64,000 nt of DNA from an uncultured Methanosarcinales archaeon. GTDB taxonomy: Archaea; Nanobdellota; Nanobdellia; Woesearchaeales; DSVV01. How positions within the stretch are numbered: the stretch's first letter is position 1; each line of letters starts with the position of its first letter. The stretch covers positions 2,106-66,105 of the forward strand of contig CAYVNO010000009.1 in assembly GCA_964452935.1 (NCBI GenBank), written 5' to 3'. Below are positions 5,691-63,535 of the stretch, piece by piece. A program made the translations under genes and the position numbers. The notes beneath the pieces are model-generated. The model searched no databases, had not been told where the DNA came from, and saw only the letters and a list, made by a program, of their open reading frames with translations.

Positions 5691-5708
5691 AAGGAAAGTT
5701 ATATATAG
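5691..5708 (+). promoter_or_regulatory. BRE/TATA-like promoter of the por operon
   Basis: AAGGAAAG followed by TTATATATA about 45 nt upstream of the TTG start; GGGGAT SD-like sequence before the start. Confidence 0.4.
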
Positions 5709-5747
5709 TATCCTGTGGCTAAATATACAACCATAAAGGGGATTTAA

Positions 5748-6299
5748 TTGTTAAAAGAGATAAGAATTCATGGCAGGGGTGGCCAAGGAGCTGTAACTAC
5801 AGGACAAATATTAGCAATTGCTGCATTCTACGATGGAAAACAAACCCAGACATTCCCAATGTTTGGTGTTGAAAGGGCAGGAGCACCTGTACAAGCATTT
5901 GTAAGACTATCAGAAAAACAGATCAGCCTAAGATCTCAAATATATGAACCAGATATAGTTCTAGTACTAGAACCAACACTCATAGAAGCTGTTAATGTTC
6001 TTGAAGGCCTAAAAAAAGGAGGCACAGTAATAGTAAACACAAACAAATCAAAAGAAGAACTTAATTTAGGCAAAGATTATACTGTCCACACAATTGACGC
6101 AACAACTATCGCACTAAAAATATTCAAAAAACCGATAGTAAATACCGCAGTTCTAGGATCATTCAGCGCACTAACAAAAATGGTCTCATTAAAATCACTA
6201 AAAAAAGCAATCGATGATGTTTTCCTAAACACAAAAGGAAAAAAGATTGCAGAATTAAACAAAACAGCTATTGAAGAAGTTTACAAAGCAGCAAAATGA
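5748..6299 (+). CDS. porG: Pyruvate:ferredoxin oxidoreductase gamma subunit
   Basis: EIRIHGRGGQGAVT and FGVERAGAPV motifs. Confidence 0.93.
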   Translation: MLKEIRIHGRGGQGAVTTGQILAIAAFYDGKQTQTFPMFGVERAGAPVQAFVRLSEKQISLRSQIYEPDIVLVLEPTLIEAVNVLEGLKKGGTVIVNTNKSKEELNLGKDYTVHTIDATTIALKIFKKPIVNTAVLGSFSALTKMVSLKSLKKAIDDVFLNTKGKKIAELNKTAIEEVYKAAK

Positions 6300-6583
6300 A
6301 AAAGAAAGCAAAATCCAAGACATGTAAAAAAGACAAACTACTTCCAGGAGCAGTAATTAACAAACCAGGGAACTCATTAAATAACAAAACAGGGGGCTGG
6401 CGTTCATTCTACCCAGTCAGAGATCAAAAAAAATGTACTAAATGTGGCTTTTGCTGGATGTTTTGCCCAGATAATGCAATAGATGAAAAATTCGACGCAA
6501 ATTTAGATTATTGTAAAGGTTGCGGAATATGCGTTAAAGTCTGTCCTTTTGGTGCTATTTACATGAAGAAGGAAGAAAAATGA
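6296..6583 (+). CDS. porD: POR delta subunit (2x[4Fe-4S])
   Basis: KTGGWRSFYP, CTKCGFCWMFCP, YCKGCGICVKVCP. Confidence 0.92.
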   Translation: MKKKAKSKTCKKDKLLPGAVINKPGNSLNNKTGGWRSFYPVRDQKKCTKCGFCWMFCPDNAIDEKFDANLDYCKGCGICVKVCPFGAIYMKKEEK

Positions 6584-6882
6584 TTATCACATATATTGTC
6601 TGTAAAAACAAACAAGAGTCAGAAAAAATATCAAAACACCTGCTCGACAAAAAACTTGTCGGGTGTGTAAACATGTTCCCAATAACATCGCAGTTTTGGT
6701 GGAAAGGAAATATTGAAAAAGAGGAAGAACATGTTATCATTGCAAAAACATTTGAAAACAAATTCAAAGAAATAACAAAAGAAGTTAAAAAATTACATTC
6801 ATATGAAACACCAGCAATACTAAAGTTTAATGTTGAAGCAGAAAAAGAGTATGAAGAATGGTTAAGAAGAGAGGTTAAATAA
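6580..6882 (+). CDS. cutA: Divalent-cation tolerance protein CutA
   Basis: KKLVGCVN, SQFWWKG, LHSYETPAI. Confidence 0.9.
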   Translation: MIITYIVCKNKQESEKISKHLLDKKLVGCVNMFPITSQFWWKGNIEKEEEHVIIAKTFENKFKEITKEVKKLHSYETPAILKFNVEAEKEYEEWLRREVK

Positions 6883-6885
6883 GAA

Positions 6886-8061
6886 ATGGTGAAAAAAGTA
6901 ATCGAAGCCAGTATGGCAGTCGCAATTGGCGCAAAACTATGTGAACCTGATGTGATACCCATGTATCCCATCACACCTCAGAGAGGCTAAGCAATAGCTT
7001 ACCTCGTGGAAACACATATAGTAGAGCGACTTTCCGACTTCATAAACAACGGAGAACTAAACTGCAACATGATTCACTTAGAGAGTGAATTCGCTGCATT
7101 AAGCGCAGCTATTGGTGTGAGCGCAACTGGTTCTAGAGTTTTCACAGCAACCGCATCTCAAGGATTAGCATTAATGAACGAAGTTCTTCATGCTTCTGCT
7201 GGAATGAGATTCCCAATAGTAATGGCTGTCGCAAATCGTGCTCTATCCGCTCCAATTAACATCTGGAACGATCATCAAGACTCAATCTCTGCAAGAGACA
7301 CAGGTTGGATACAACTTTATGTAGAAAGTGCACAAGAAGCATTAGACACAACAATTATGGCATTCAAAATTGCAGAGAATAAAAAAGTTTTAACACCAGT
7401 AATGGTTTGTCTAGACGGATTCACACTAAGTCATGTTTATGAACCTGTTGATATACCTATCCAATCTCAAGTTAGAAAATTCCTTCCAAAATTTAAACCA
7501 GATATCTTCTTAGATCCAAAAAAACCAATAACAATGGGGCCTTTAGCATTCCCTGACGTATATATGGAAATAAAAAAAGAACAACAAGACGCAATCCTTA
7601 ACTCATTACCAATAATAAAAACAGTTAACTCACAATTCTATAAATCATTCAAAAGAAAGTATGGAGATGGATTAATAGAAACATACAAAACAAAAGATGC
7701 AAACACTATTTTAATAGCAATGGGAACTGTATGTAGTACTACTAGGACAGTTATAGATGAATTAAGAAAAGAAAAGAAAACTAATAAAGTAGGATTACTA
7801 AAAATAAAGTGTTTCAGACCATTTCCAGAAGAAGAAATAAAAAAAGCTCTAAAAAAAGCTAAAAAGATCGTAGTCATGGATAAAGATATGTCATATGGTT
7901 ATGAAGGAGCATTATACTCAGAAATTAAGTCCGCATTATACGGAGAAAAAAAGGAAATTAAAGGTTGTATTATTGGTTTAGGAGGGAGAGATGTAACTCC
8001 AAAACACATAAAACATGCATTAACAAATAAAGGAAAAGAGAAAACAGAGTGGTTGTTGTAA
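6886..8061 (+). CDS. porA: POR alpha subunit, interrupted by a 30-nt insert (predicted exons 6886-6981 and 7012-8061, 381 aa)
   Basis: ATG 6886 gives MVKKVIEASMAVAIGAKLCEPDVIPMYPITPQ, then an in-frame TAA at 6988-6990. The same frame resumes with THIVE...ESEFAA...TATASQGL...NRAL. Removing 30 nt restores YPITPQTHIVE. Confidence 0.9.
6982..7011 (+). other. Putative BHB-type micro-intron in porA mRNA
   Basis: AGAGGCTAAGCAATAGCTTACCTCGTGGAA. Exon CCTC pairs with intron GTGG (3 of 4 bp), bulges AG^A and AA^A, inner stem GAGG/CCTC plus TAAGC/GCTTA. Confidence 0.7.
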
Positions 8062-8074
8062 AGGTGACAAAAGC

Positions 8075-8410
8075 TTGACATTTGTTCATCATCTGCTGAA
8101 AGAGGATGACTTCAAAGAGAAGTGTGCATATTGTGGTAGTGAGCTCAATGAAGAAGAATGGAAAGAAATCCATGACTCAAGAATACAATACCACAATATA
8201 ACCTGTGAATGCGGAAAAAGAAATACAATAAGAATAGACTCAAAAGATGTTAACCACAACAAATGGGCACAAGATGAGTTTATGAAAAGAAAAACAACAG
8301 AAAAAGAGAGATTAGGAAGACTAATAAAACTAGAAAATTTAACAGGAGACGCACACAAACACATAGCAGAAAAGATTATAGAATCAAGATCAAAAGAACC
8401 AAAGGATTAA
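8075..8410 (+). CDS. Small Zn-ribbon-like hypothetical protein
   Basis: CAYCG...CECG; AGGTGA SD 7 nt before the TTG start. Confidence 0.6.
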   Translation: MTFVHHLLKEDDFKEKCAYCGSELNEEEWKEIHDSRIQYHNITCECGKRNTIRIDSKDVNHNKWAQDEFMKRKTTEKERLGRLIKLENLTGDAHKHIAEKIIESRSKEPKD

Positions 8411-8414
8411 TAAA

Positions 8415-9338
8415 ATGAAACCGGAAAAAGATACAATTTGTGGATTATCAAAAACAGAGCTATTCGCATCAGGACATAAAGCATGTGCTGGATGTGGTGC
8501 AGCATTAGTTCCAAGATTTGCTCTAAAAGCAGCAGGGAAGAACACAATAGTCTGCAACGCAACAGGATGTCTAGAAGTATTTTCAACAGCATATCCTGAA
8601 ACTTCATGGAGAGTTCCATGGATCCATGTAACATTTGAAAATGCAGCTTCCGTTGCATCAGGAATAGATAGAGCACTACAAATGCAAAAGAAAAGAGATA
8701 AAACAAACCTAATAGTCTTTGGTGGAGATGGAGGAACATTTGACATTGGACTACAATTCATCTCAGGAGCAATCGAAAGAGGACATAAATTCACATACAT
8801 CTGTTACGATAATGAAGCCTACATGAACACAGGAATACAACGTTCTGGTTCAACACCTAAATATGCGGCAACAACAACCTCTCCGGCAGGTAAAAAAATT
8901 CACGGAAAAACAGAATTCAAAAAACCAATGCCATTTATTGTAGCTGCTCACGGAAACGTCTATGTTGCAACAGCCAATATAGCATTCCCACAAGATTTTA
9001 TCGCAAAAGTAAAAAAAGCACTGAAATATGATGGCCCATCTTACATACAAATCTACGCACCGTGTCCAACAGGATGGAAACACCCATCTAATATGACAAT
9101 CGAGGTAGCAAAACTTGCATACTACACAAACCTCTACCCACTATATGAGATAGAAAAAGGAGTTCTAACATTAAACAGATTTCCATCAGACCCAAAACAA
9201 GTAGAAGAATTCTTTAAAATACAAGGCAGATTAAAACATCTATCTGAAAAAGAAACAAAAGACATGCAAAAGAAAGTAGACTCACAATTTAAAACAATAA
9301 AACATCTGAGTGATATGAAAACAAGATTTATTCTATAG
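8415..9338 (+). CDS. porB: POR beta subunit
   Basis: GHKACAGCG, ATGCLEV, GGDGG TPP motif, YDNEAYMNTG, PCPTGW. Confidence 0.95.
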   Translation: MKPEKDTICGLSKTELFASGHKACAGCGAALVPRFALKAAGKNTIVCNATGCLEVFSTAYPETSWRVPWIHVTFENAASVASGIDRALQMQKKRDKTNLIVFGGDGGTFDIGLQFISGAIERGHKFTYICYDNEAYMNTGIQRSGSTPKYAATTTSPAGKKIHGKTEFKKPMPFIVAAHGNVYVATANIAFPQDFIAKVKKALKYDGPSYIQIYAPCPTGWKHPSNMTIEVAKLAYYTNLYPLYEIEKGVLTLNRFPSDPKQVEEFFKIQGRLKHLSEKETKDMQKKVDSQFKTIKHLSDMKTRFIL

Positions 9339-10002
9339 TTGTCCCTTTAAACTCTTCTCCTTTCAAATATCTCTCTAAATTATTAATATTATCTCCATTC
9401 ATTATAACGACTCTCAACCCACACTCTTCTGCATTCTTTGCTGCAACAGGATCAAATGGCAAATTCAAACCAGGCTTCCACTCTCCACCAACAATCTCTT
9501 TAAATTCACTCCAAGATAACTTCACCATAGGTTTTGCATCATCAAACTGCTTAGGATCTTTATCAAAAACATAATCAACATTGGTTAAATTAATCACAGT
9601 ATCGGCTTTCAAATTCTCTGCTAAATAAACAGCATCATTATCTGAGCTACAACCAGGCATCCAACCAGAAGCTATTATTATTTTTTTATCTGTCTCGATC
9701 TTCTCTTTAGGATTATAAACAACATATTCATACGCTTCCTTACCAAAAACAGTCCTTATTAACTCAGCATTCAATTTTGTTGCAGCAATACCCACCCAGT
9801 CACAATCCTCTTTACTTGGCTCAGAAATCTCAATTGCAGCATTAATATATTCTCTTGCAATATGTCCACCACCACAAACAATAACAATCTTATTCTCTTT
9901 ACTAAAATCTAAAACCATCTTTTTAATTCTTTTAATATGTTCAATATCAATCTCTTTTGGATTAATTATTGATCCACCCAATGACACTATAATCGTTTTC
10001 AT
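9328..10002 (-). CDS. pyrH: Archaeal-type UMP kinase
   Basis: SLGGS, CGGGHIAREYI, DWVGIAATKLNA, TNVDYVFDKDP, PFDPVAA. Confidence 0.92.
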   Translation of the reverse strand: MKTIIVSLGGSIINPKEIDIEHIKRIKKMVLDFSKENKIVIVCGGGHIAREYINAAIEISEPSKEDCDWVGIAATKLNAELIRTVFGKEAYEYVVYNPKEKIETDKKIIIASGWMPGCSSDNDAVYLAENLKADTVINLTNVDYVFDKDPKQFDDAKPMVKLSWSEFKEIVGGEWKPGLNLPFDPVAAKNAEECGLRVVIMNGDNINNLERYLKGEEFKGTTIE

Positions 10003-62671: not shown

Positions 62672-62727
62672 ACATAAATCATTTAAATCATAGTCAAGAC
62701 AGACAATACAGACTGAGCTCAATGGGG

Positions 62728-62758
62728 ATTTCATAAGCAAAAGCTTACGAGACCATAA
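62728..62758 (+). other. tRNA intron 1 (31 nt), acceptor stem position 4/5
   Basis: Helix ATGG/CCAT (4/4), bulges GG^A and AA^A, inner stem TTTC.TAAGC/GCTTA.GAGA. Confidence 0.8.
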
Positions 62759-62785
62759 ACGTAGCTCAGACTGGGAGAGCGCTAG

Positions 62786-62806
62786 TTTGCTTTCATGCAA
62801 AGCGAA
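62786..62806 (+). other. tRNA intron 2 (21 nt), position 30/31
   Basis: Strict BHB: outer AG/CT, helix CGCT/AGCG, bulges AG^T and AA^A, inner TTGC/GCAA. Confidence 0.85.
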
Positions 62807-62813
62807 ACTGAAG

Positions 62814-62870
62814 ATTCCAGTCCTGTAAGGTTTAGATCTGATGACTGCCTCGGCAGGATGATTATCAGAG
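62814..62870 (+). other. tRNA intron 3 (57 nt), canonical position 37/38
   Basis: Helix CTGA/TCAG, bulges AG^A and AG^A, closed by the anticodon stem once intron 2 is removed. Confidence 0.85.
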
Positions 62871-62887
62871 ATCTAGATGTCCTGGGT

Positions 62888-63535
62888 TCAAATCCCAGCG
62901 TCCCCATTTTTTAATTTCTTATATTTTTTAAGATTCTTAGGGTTAGAAAAACCAATTTCATTAAACCATTTATCAACCATATAATCTCCATTAAGAGAGA
63001 TCTTATACAGTCGATTATAGTTTCCTCGCTTATGACTTCGAAAACCTATTCTAAAGTTAGTAGAAAGAATTTCTTTCAACTGATTAGCAAGACCCATACT
63101 AATTGTATTAAGCTCAATCGAAGGATAATCTTTTCTATAACCTTTGTTAGCTAAGAACAAAGAACCATCTGTATCAACTATCCCCTTCAAACACTGAGTT
63201 AATAAACGCGGATCACAAATAATCTGTTCTGGGATAGTAACGTTTTTACATTTATCTTTATTTGGAACCATTTTAAGTTCTAAAACTAAGAATTCAACTA
63301 ATTTCCTAGAGTTAACTCTTAACCTTATAGCGCCTTGTCTAAAAAACAAATGAGACTTAAGATTGAACACATCCAATACCAAATCTCTTAAATAATTATA
63401 ATAGTCTTTCTCTTCATACATATTTCCTGCAATTTCAACATAATACTGACTAATATCTGGTTTATACCTAATACTACCATCACCAATTACAACACCTACA
63501 AACTCTGCAAGTTCCTTTGACATCTTATAATCCAT
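62888..63535 (-). CDS. Free-standing double-motif LAGLIDADG endonuclease-like protein (likely start 63535)
   Basis: LAEFVGVVIGDGS and CLKGIVDTDGS; the last codons overlap the tRNA 3' end on the opposite strand. Confidence 0.85.
   Translation of the reverse strand: MDYKMSKELAEFVGVVIGDGSIRYKPDISQYYVEIAGNMYEEKDYYNYLRDLVLDVFNLKSHLFFRQGAIRLRVNSRKLVEFLVLELKMVPNKDKCKNVTIPEQIICDPRLLTQCLKGIVDTDGSLFLANKGYRKDYPSIELNTISMGLANQLKEILSTNFRIGFRSHKRGNYNRLYKISLNGDYMVDKWFNEIGFSNPKNLKKYKKLKNGDAGI

Follow-up and report, generated by a model that had tools for sequence, protein, structure and literature searches.

A probable splicing-endonuclease-type micro-intron in the porA coding sequence of a marine DPANN archaeon

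In crenarchaea, an intron of the bulge-helix-bulge (BHB) type was reportedly described by Watanabe in 2002 within the cbf5 mRNA. According to the accessible part of Yokobori 2009 (PMC2738675), this cbf5 intron is of the splicing-endonuclease type, has been gained and lost among relatives and is removed by the tRNA-splicing machinery. Subsequently, a BHB intron in the 5' untranslated region of the Haloferax volcanii HVO_1309 mRNA was shown in vivo and in vitro (PMC7714728), and the accessible part of the same paper names crenarchaeal cbf5 as the one further archaeal mRNA for which a BHB intron had been reported by 2020, in agreement with an earlier sequence-only reading of the DNA treated here, which had called archaeal mRNA introns very rare and crenarchaeal cbf5 their classic case. 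A 2025 paper (PMC12397907) cites, in its accessible part, only the cbf5 papers for this matter; mRNAs are outside the scope of a 2026 preprint on tRNA introns in Asgard archaea. In tRNA genes, non-canonical introns of the HBh', hBH and BHL forms are recorded for Thermoproteales, ARMAN and other DPANN archaea in the accessible part of PMC5829648. The present analysis concerns a window of 64,000 nucleotides (64 kb; positions 2,106 to 66,105 of contig CAYVNO010000009.1, assembly GCA_964452935.1) from a marine archaeon, in which the gene porA, encoding the alpha subunit of a POR-type 2-oxoacid:ferredoxin oxidoreductase, is split by 30 nucleotides (nt) that are, with high probability, a splicing-endonuclease-type intron in the coding sequence. 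Full-text searches, confined to main texts outside subscription journals, turned up no description of an endonuclease-type intron for porA or for other protein genes of DPANN archaea, and the porA intron would be a further case of a type so far represented by a single gene of a different phylum.

As with the cbf5 intron, the porA insert lies inside protein-coding sequence, is patchy among relatives and appears to be of the splicing-endonuclease type. Its hosts differ from the crenarchaeal ones in standing in records labelled Woesearchaeota, Nanoarchaeota and Aenigmatarchaeota; moreover, the interrupted genes described below are porA, rtcB, kae1, EF-2 and cysS, the inserts are tiny (21-36 nt, and 13 nt in kae1) and the porA motif is of the relaxed HBh' form, in all of which they are unlike cbf5. 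The TruB_N (cbf5) domain itself gave no match in the source genome, which is about 90% complete. HVO_1309 is an mRNA, and thus neither tRNA nor rRNA, that the archaeal splicing endonuclease cuts, as it probably does with porA, but its intron is in an untranslated leader and breaks no reading frame, whereas that of porA does. The non-canonical tRNA introns share the motif class and the cut rule of porA; the porA host, however, is an mRNA, in which the exon strand of the helix encodes Pro-Gln and cannot vary independently of the protein, unlike in tRNA introns.

The source genome of the window, labelled G000, is a 1.66-Mb assembly, and all window features given here lie on the + strand. The ATG of porA stands at 6886, and the junction reads TAT CCC ATC ACA CCT CAG, then the insert AGAGGCTAAGCAATAGCTTACCTCGTGGAA, then ACA CAT ATA GTA GAG. 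Exon 1 (6886..6981, 32 codons) aligns to the N-termini of uninterrupted orthologues and ends in ...YPITPQ; the 30-nt insert, delimited from sequence and comparison, occupies 6982..7011 (a placement at 6983-7012 is equally valid, with the A on either side); and exon 2 (7012..8061, with 349 codons at 7012-8058 plus the stop) starts with THIVE... and matches Pfam POR_N (profile positions 20-221) and PFOR_II. Read on from ...YPITPQ, the frame enters AGA GGC TAA inside the insert, with the stop at 6988-6990, while exact removal of the insert joins the two exons into a 381-residue PorA whose YPITPQ/THIVE motif is identical to that of uninterrupted orthologues. The POR_N match begins at profile position 20 with the first residue of exon 2, so that the missing head of the domain is exon 1, and ORF (open reading frame) finders give a 351-residue ORF starting at the GTG at 7006. 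Both exons and the remaining genes of the operon are undamaged, and the insert is present with zero differences in DNA contigs of four runs from two studies, the best-matching of which may be the source sample. Given these four runs and the recurrence of the insert in dozens of independent assemblies, an assembly error was excluded. The sequence-only reading had claimed exactly 30 nt with an in-frame TAA splitting YPITPQ and THIVE in an otherwise intact operon, and a cut giving CAG^ACA (Gln-Thr) and a 381-residue PorA; the sequence, the ORFs and the Pfam matches bear out the one claim and the exon lengths of 32 and 349 codons the other, and the DNA contigs keep the insert, whose lack in DNA reads it had named as the sign of an assembly error. 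As a separate observation, the contigs of two of the four DNA runs (X1 and X2) end or restart within 6990-7017, the other two spanning the intron, and these breaks could reflect strain variants at the intron.

The substrate of the splicing endonuclease is ordered as outer helix h, central helix H, bulge, inner helix h', loop, h', H, bulge and h, and is cut after the second base of each bulge; this cut rule was derived from the canonical 37/38 tRNA intron and then checked on the tRNA-Phe gene of the window. At porA, the 5' strand of the central 4-bp helix, H(a), is CCUC at 6976..6979 (exon bases -6 to -3), which pairs at 3 of 4 positions with its 3' strand, H(b), GUGG at 7006..7009 (intron bases -6 to -3), the latter assigned by pairing and including the GTG taken as the ORF start. 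Between them, the 5' bulge AG^A (6980..6982) puts the predicted cut between 6981 and 6982, the same position as in the tRNA-Phe introns, and the inner hairpin h' (6983..7005; GAGG-c-UAAGC, loop AAUA, GCUUA-CCUC), which is given by the fold and by covariation in homologues, abuts the GUGG strand of the central helix. The 3' site AA^A (7010..7012), taken from the fold, puts the second predicted cut between 7011 and 7012 and has no closing outer helix, so that the porA motif is the relaxed HBh' form and not the canonical hBHBh' bulge-helix-bulge. Each element of the fold as claimed from the sequence (CCUC/GUGG with 3 of 4 base pairs, bulge AG^A, inner hairpin, 3' site AA^A) was found as described, and the label of a tRNA-type (BHB) intron has to be narrowed: the cut rule and the succession of H, bulge and h' stand, whereas the outer helix is absent.

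The same rule, which had been said to yield all three introns of the tRNA-Phe gene, does so. This tRNA-Phe(GAA) gene lies at 62724..62906 (Rfam, 29.5 bits; cut rule; ARAGORN after intron removal), and its introns 1 (62728-62758, helix AUGG/CCAU), 2 (62786-62806, helix CGCU/AGCG) and 3 (62814-62870, helix CUGA/UCAG, at the canonical 37/38 position) each have a central helix paired at 4 of 4 positions. Once the three introns are taken out, ARAGORN calls a 74-nt tRNA-Phe(GAA); on the unspliced genomic 64-kb window it calls no tRNA, and this tRNA is the only match in the window for Rfam at the gathering threshold.

What sets the insert apart from chance is the comparison with other genomes. Close orthologues of porA were found at 10 loci among 41 relatives, with 60-76% identity to exon 2, and YPITPQTHIVE is unbroken in nine of the ten as well as in 16 remoter homologues; the tenth, G034, from another family, has a 30-nt insert of its own at the identical codon, which answers the earlier proposal to align porA from relatives. 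An order-wide scan, whose pattern fixed the flanking codons and nothing inside the insert, found an insert in 6 of 401 genomes, from four families, with lengths of 30, 31 and 32 nt. When the pattern additionally fixed CCACAR and GTGGA, a scan of all species genomes gave 17 stretches, 15 of which are porA; the other two, in bacteria, were rejected as chance matches. The record titles of the 15 read Woesearchaeota, Nanoarchaeota/Nanoarchaeia and Aenigmatarchaeota, with one each of 'Nanohaloarchaea', 'Methanosarcinales' and 'archaeon'. A metagenome scan, again with nothing fixed inside the insert, gave 17 stretches, all 17 at the porA site, the upstream part of one being cut by the end of its locus. 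Overall, there are 23 distinct versions of the insert, from 21 to 36 nt: nine of 30 nt, four each of 29 and 32 nt, and one each of 21, 27, 28, 31, 33 and 36 nt. A retained insert would shift the frame in about 11 of the 23, every version brings an early in-frame stop within 1-8 codons after exon 1 (immediately next in G051 and G197), and only with exact removal of the insert do the exons on either side read through as open, conserved sequence.

These versions also keep the geometry. The central helix is paired at 4 of 4 positions in 22 of the 23, and the strict geometry, defined as a 4/4 helix, a 3-nt bulge and an abutting hairpin of at least 4 bp, is found in 16 of the 23, in 20 with one base of slack, and in none of 2001 shuffled introns; unconstrained folds give the string ((((...( exactly in 9 of 12 versions. 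In an alignment of 12 versions made with MAFFT and not fitted to the structure, 84.6% of cells pair vs. 67.8% after shuffling, and both sides have changed in eight of the nine hairpin pairs. The covariation score is 0.457, whereas shuffling gives 0.155 and sliding the partners no more than 0.226; neither the observed pairing nor the observed score is reached by any of 500 shuffles. The inner helix is thus conserved as a structure while its sequence varies freely. The metagenome version L079 carries CCUC opposite GAGG, the others carrying CCAC opposite GUGG, and its proline codon is CCU, as in G000; because both strands have changed in L079, the exon-intron helix is kept and the putative GUG start is gone.

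The history of the insert was followed on a tree of PorA with 31 rows, of which 23 carry the intron and eight do not; seven rows that were too short, nine duplicates and the two chance loci were left out. Intron-bearing porA genes stand on both sides of the midpoint root, with the intron-less ones nested among them, and the tree needs at least four changes, three of them imposed by branches with good support. The intron-bearing G000 has the intron-less G004 as its sister, and the intron-less G025 pairs in the same way with a metagenome gene that does carry the intron. The simplest reading of this tree would be an old intron in the PorA clade with several exact losses; frequencies are not readable from a sampling in which the intron rows come from the pattern and the intron-less rows from relatives only.

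The tRNA genes of G000 point in the same direction as its porA. In the whole 1.66-Mb assembly, ARAGORN finds five uninterrupted tRNA genes, or 15 if canonical introns are allowed, and non-canonical tRNA introns occur at positions 4/5 and 30/31; nearly all tRNA genes of this genome seem to be disrupted and, since only five uninterrupted ones are found, G000 depends heavily on its intron-removal pathway. One EndA gene was found, of 176 residues (PF01974, 97.6 bits; PF02778, 66.7 bits), a single protein set against the hetero-oligomeric endonuclease to which cbf5 splicing has been linked. Its best solved relatives are an M. kandleri construct, the M. jannaschii alpha4 enzyme (1a79) and the N. equitans alpha subunit, and the sole EndA found looks, by alignment, like a plain alpha4 type. 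Judged by the tRNA genes, this EndA must process non-canonical sites such as the tRNA introns at 4/5 and 30/31. Relaxed motifs are reported for broad-specificity endonucleases of the (alpha-beta)2 or epsilon2 kind or with an extra loop, and, in the accessible part of PMC5829648, DPANN archaea whose alpha4 enzyme has an added C-terminal loop are said to have disrupted tRNA genes.

We infer that the porA transcript is cut and joined in the cell by EndA and RtcB. In the transcript, the exon bases -6 to -3 (CCUC) would pair with the intron bases -6 to -3 (GUGG), the remaining intron would fold into a hairpin abutting this central helix, and the AG^A bulge at the 5' junction together with AA^A at the 3' junction would form a relaxed bulge-helix-bulge, HBh'. 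EndA would then cut after the second base of either site, and RtcB would join the exons as ...CCU CAG^ACA CAU..., i.e., ACACCUCAG to ACACAUAUAG, to give the 381-residue PorA with an intact YPITPQTHIVE, the unspliced mRNA yielding a 34-residue peptide only. Whereas cbf5 splicing has been shown on RNA, that of porA is predicted from sequence comparison. Among the runs listed for 5700-9400 of the window there was no RNA run, a result without bearing on expression. The broader claim made beforehand, namely that this lineage splices mRNAs with its tRNA endonuclease and ligase, stands in so far as its testable sequence-level predictions were borne out, and it remains probable on that comparative footing.

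Several observations weigh against splicing by this route. The CCUC/GUGG helix of G000 has a U·U mismatch, leaving 3 of 4 pairs, and G000 is the sole version of the 23 with a mismatch in the central helix; the free energy of the hairpin is unremarkable (z = -1.0 vs. shuffles); and no canonical outer exon-exon helix h closing the 3' bulge was found by folding and by reading by hand, the flanking bases pairing inconsistently. On the side of the enzymes, the G000 EndA matches the M. jannaschii alpha4 enzyme over the full length with no insertion and is without the 6-residue insertion of the N. equitans alpha subunit, a second (beta) EndA subunit was not found in this genome, which is about 90% complete, and alpha4 enzymes are held, in the accessible part of PMC5829648, to be strict and not to cut relaxed HBh' motifs. 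The RtcB gene (502 bits), in turn, is itself interrupted.

Some of these points are what gives weight to the idea that another nuclease or ligase removes the insert, or that a cut regulates or destroys the mRNA rather than yielding PorA: the EndA looks like a strict alpha4 enzyme, the 3' site is outside a closed bulge, rtcB is itself interrupted, and its insert, with only 2 of 4 pairs in the central helix, is a loose fit to the rule. Relative to the helices, however, porA has its cut positions exactly where the three tRNA-Phe introns have theirs, the enzyme of G000 must already handle such sites at 4/5 and 30/31, and we know of no enzyme other than EndA for such tRNA introns, so we give this alternative a very small probability. 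A split gene is likewise improbable in the extreme. It would have exon 1 make a short peptide and the rest of the protein start from GUG 7006, with the pieces assembling and the hairpin coupling their translation, as might be read from the 351-residue ORF of the ORF finders, from the GUGGA that stands in frame before exon 2 in 22 of the 23 versions and from the early stop after exon 1 in all of them. L079, however, has GAGG for GUGG and, read by hand, no ATG, GTG or TTG in the frame of exon 2 between the preceding stop and that exon; the exact spacing of helix, 3 nt, hairpin, helix and 2 nt is kept although no coupling model requires it; the most conserved motif of the domain would be broken mid-way; and the tRNA introns share the geometry, for which translation cannot account.

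That porA is a pseudogene in G000, through an inactivating insertion or an assembly artefact, might be argued from the in-frame TAA, from the helix mismatch that the other 22 versions do not have and from the sister G004, which is without the insert; yet the exons and the operon are intact, the insert is in independent DNA contigs of four runs, the structure covaries, and inserts at the same codon persist over the 31-row PorA tree, with exon proteins at 60-76% identity and no other damage, and we hold such an inactivation for highly unlikely. The least probable explanation in our view, with hardly any weight left to it, is a translational bypass, with the ribosome jumping the insert in the manner of phage T4 gene 60, where no RNA is removed and matched take-off and landing codons are needed. 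As in that phage gene, the reading frame of porA is broken by a brief stretch that would go untranslated and that contains a hairpin and a stop, the hairpin starting right after the take-off region and the stop coming within 1-8 codons; but the matched codons of T4 gene 60 are absent at porA, where a take-off codon CAG or CAA faces a GAA, GAU or GAG triplet before exon 2, and a bypass leaves the exon-intron helix, its compensatory change and the geometry of the tRNA introns unexplained. Two further candidates were rejected outright. Group I and group II introns have a ribozyme core of hundreds of nucleotides, for which 30 nt are too small, and Rfam finds only the tRNA in the window. An intein is inserted in frame, translated and removed from the protein, which does not agree with the in-frame TAA and with about 11 of 23 insert lengths that are not multiples of three.

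A splicing-endonuclease-type intron in porA being the favoured explanation, its kind was also looked for in other protein genes, and the proposed scan of the genome for inserts in conserved genes did find some: rtcB and kae1 in G000, and EF-2 and cysS in its closest relative G004. At least three protein genes are interrupted in G000, namely porA, rtcB and kae1. In rtcB (G000 contig C7:194-263), ...AMPDAHQGY stops and GFSIGGV... resumes 32 nt further on in another frame, and an insert of 32 or 33 nt at the same site is present in 4 of 28 genomes of the family, from three genera (G000, G004, G019 and G011). This insert is ringed by long exon-exon pairing, its central helix has only 2 of 4 pairs and the cut rule fits it loosely, and no proper bulge-helix-bulge could be drawn for it. 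The insert in kae1 (G000 contig C8:10079-10126, - strand) has 13 nt and a central helix CUGC/GCAG paired at 4 of 4 positions, and the product matches the G004 protein; a 13-bp exon-exon outer helix arises there from synonymous codon choices and is absent in the uninterrupted G004 gene. By a strict pattern, G000 is alone among the 28 family genomes in having the kae1 insert, which is a single observation. In G004, EF-2 (contig C3, at about 231,170 in reversed coordinates, - strand) carries 33 nt between AICAHI and DHGKT, in the P-loop codons, with a GCAC/GUGC helix paired at 4 of 4 positions and an abutting inner helix; cysS (contig C2, at about 151,150 in reversed coordinates, - strand) carries 32 nt with a central helix of 3 of 4 pairs, and the cut rule restores its CGPTVY. 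The inserts of EF-2 and cysS both follow the cut rule, and both products match the uninterrupted G000 proteins.

These genes came from a reciprocal homology screen of G000 against the whole of G004 and the first 800 kb of G024, which covered ORFs of at least 90 residues and introns absent from the reference, with both protein ends viewed; no inserts were seen by this screen in the first 800 kb of G024. On inspection by eye most of its matches were discarded, being 'shadow' ORFs on the antisense strand, tails of low complexity or differences in inteins. A 40-nt 'insert' after the first codons of an SRP54-like gene (G000 contig C14, - strand) proved to be an assembly artefact, in which a run of N flanked by duplicated sequence marks a scaffold gap. 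A scan of G000 by structure only gave 140,404 and then 54,738 candidates in its loose forms and 15 clusters in its strict form, with porA as the only gene-like one; the strict form missed rtcB and kae1, and its negatives mean little. The five host sites (porA, kae1, rtcB, EF-2 and cysS) all lie in the first 70 codons and within highly conserved motifs, a clustering that may in part be detection bias. A further oddity of G000 is an SMC-like gene (contig C7:38115-38184, - strand) in which the first ten or so codons are doubled about 70 nt apart, with a stable hairpin in between.

The inner hairpins of the porA intron (6988-7002) and of tRNA-Phe intron 1 (62734-62748) differ in 1 of 15 bases, and the G000 genome has no more than six places where that stem motif is closed by a loop of 3-6 nt. 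The tRNA-Phe gene of G004 is without introns 1 and 2 of G000 and carries others. The hairpin shared by porA and tRNA-Phe, with its position empty in G004, hints that introns move between mRNA and tRNA genes, and, as G000 and G004 differ in their interrupted genes as well as in their tRNA-Phe introns, the intron sets would appear to turn over quickly between sister genomes. From the near-identical hairpins and the intron in rtcB we advance, tentatively and at somewhat less than even likelihood, that these Woesearchaeota-type archaea have a small, shifting population of micro-introns of 13-36 nt, which moves back and forth from tRNA genes to the 5' ends of essential protein genes and makes mRNA splicing routine. 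It belongs to this picture, and is possible to the same limited degree, that the rtcB intron makes the ligase dependent on its own product, a built-in feedback on splicing capacity. A small mRNA intron cut at stem-loops by a protein endonuclease and joined by a tRNA ligase (RtcB in animals), with a change of frame, is also found in HAC1/XBP1 of eukaryotes, although there, unlike at porA, the endonuclease is Ire1 and not Sen/EndA, and the splicing is a regulated stress response.

The surrounding region 5748-9338 is, by the ORF list and Pfam, the operon of the oxidoreductase, in the order gamma, delta, CutA1-like, alpha, a 111-residue ORF and beta. It comprises a porG-like gamma subunit (5748..6299; Pfam POR, 143.6 bits), a porD-like delta subunit with two 4Fe-4S motifs (6296..6583; Pfam Fer4, 58.6 bits), a cutA1-like gene situated between porD and porA (6580..6882; Pfam CutA1, 101.1 bits), the two porA exons and, downstream, a porB-like beta subunit (8415..9338; Pfam TPP_enzyme_C, 77 bits). 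The ORF of 111 residues between porA and porB (8075-8410) is cysteine-rich and has no Pfam match.

If the porA insert and its counterparts are indeed spliced, a second, unrelated superphylum would process the mRNAs of core genes (pyruvate oxidoreductase, RNA ligase, Kae1, EF-2 and CysRS) with its tRNA machinery, and an apparently plain alpha4 EndA would cut relaxed motifs, contrary to the current rule. The rtcB mRNA itself would need splicing for the very ligase that is expected to join the exons. Gene callers would truncate or split such genes, as with the PorA start called at the GTG of the splice helix, and metabolic reconstructions of DPANN archaea may miss genes that are in fact intact. 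The patchy distribution of these introns would, moreover, offer a natural system of intron gain and precise intron loss without a spliceosome.

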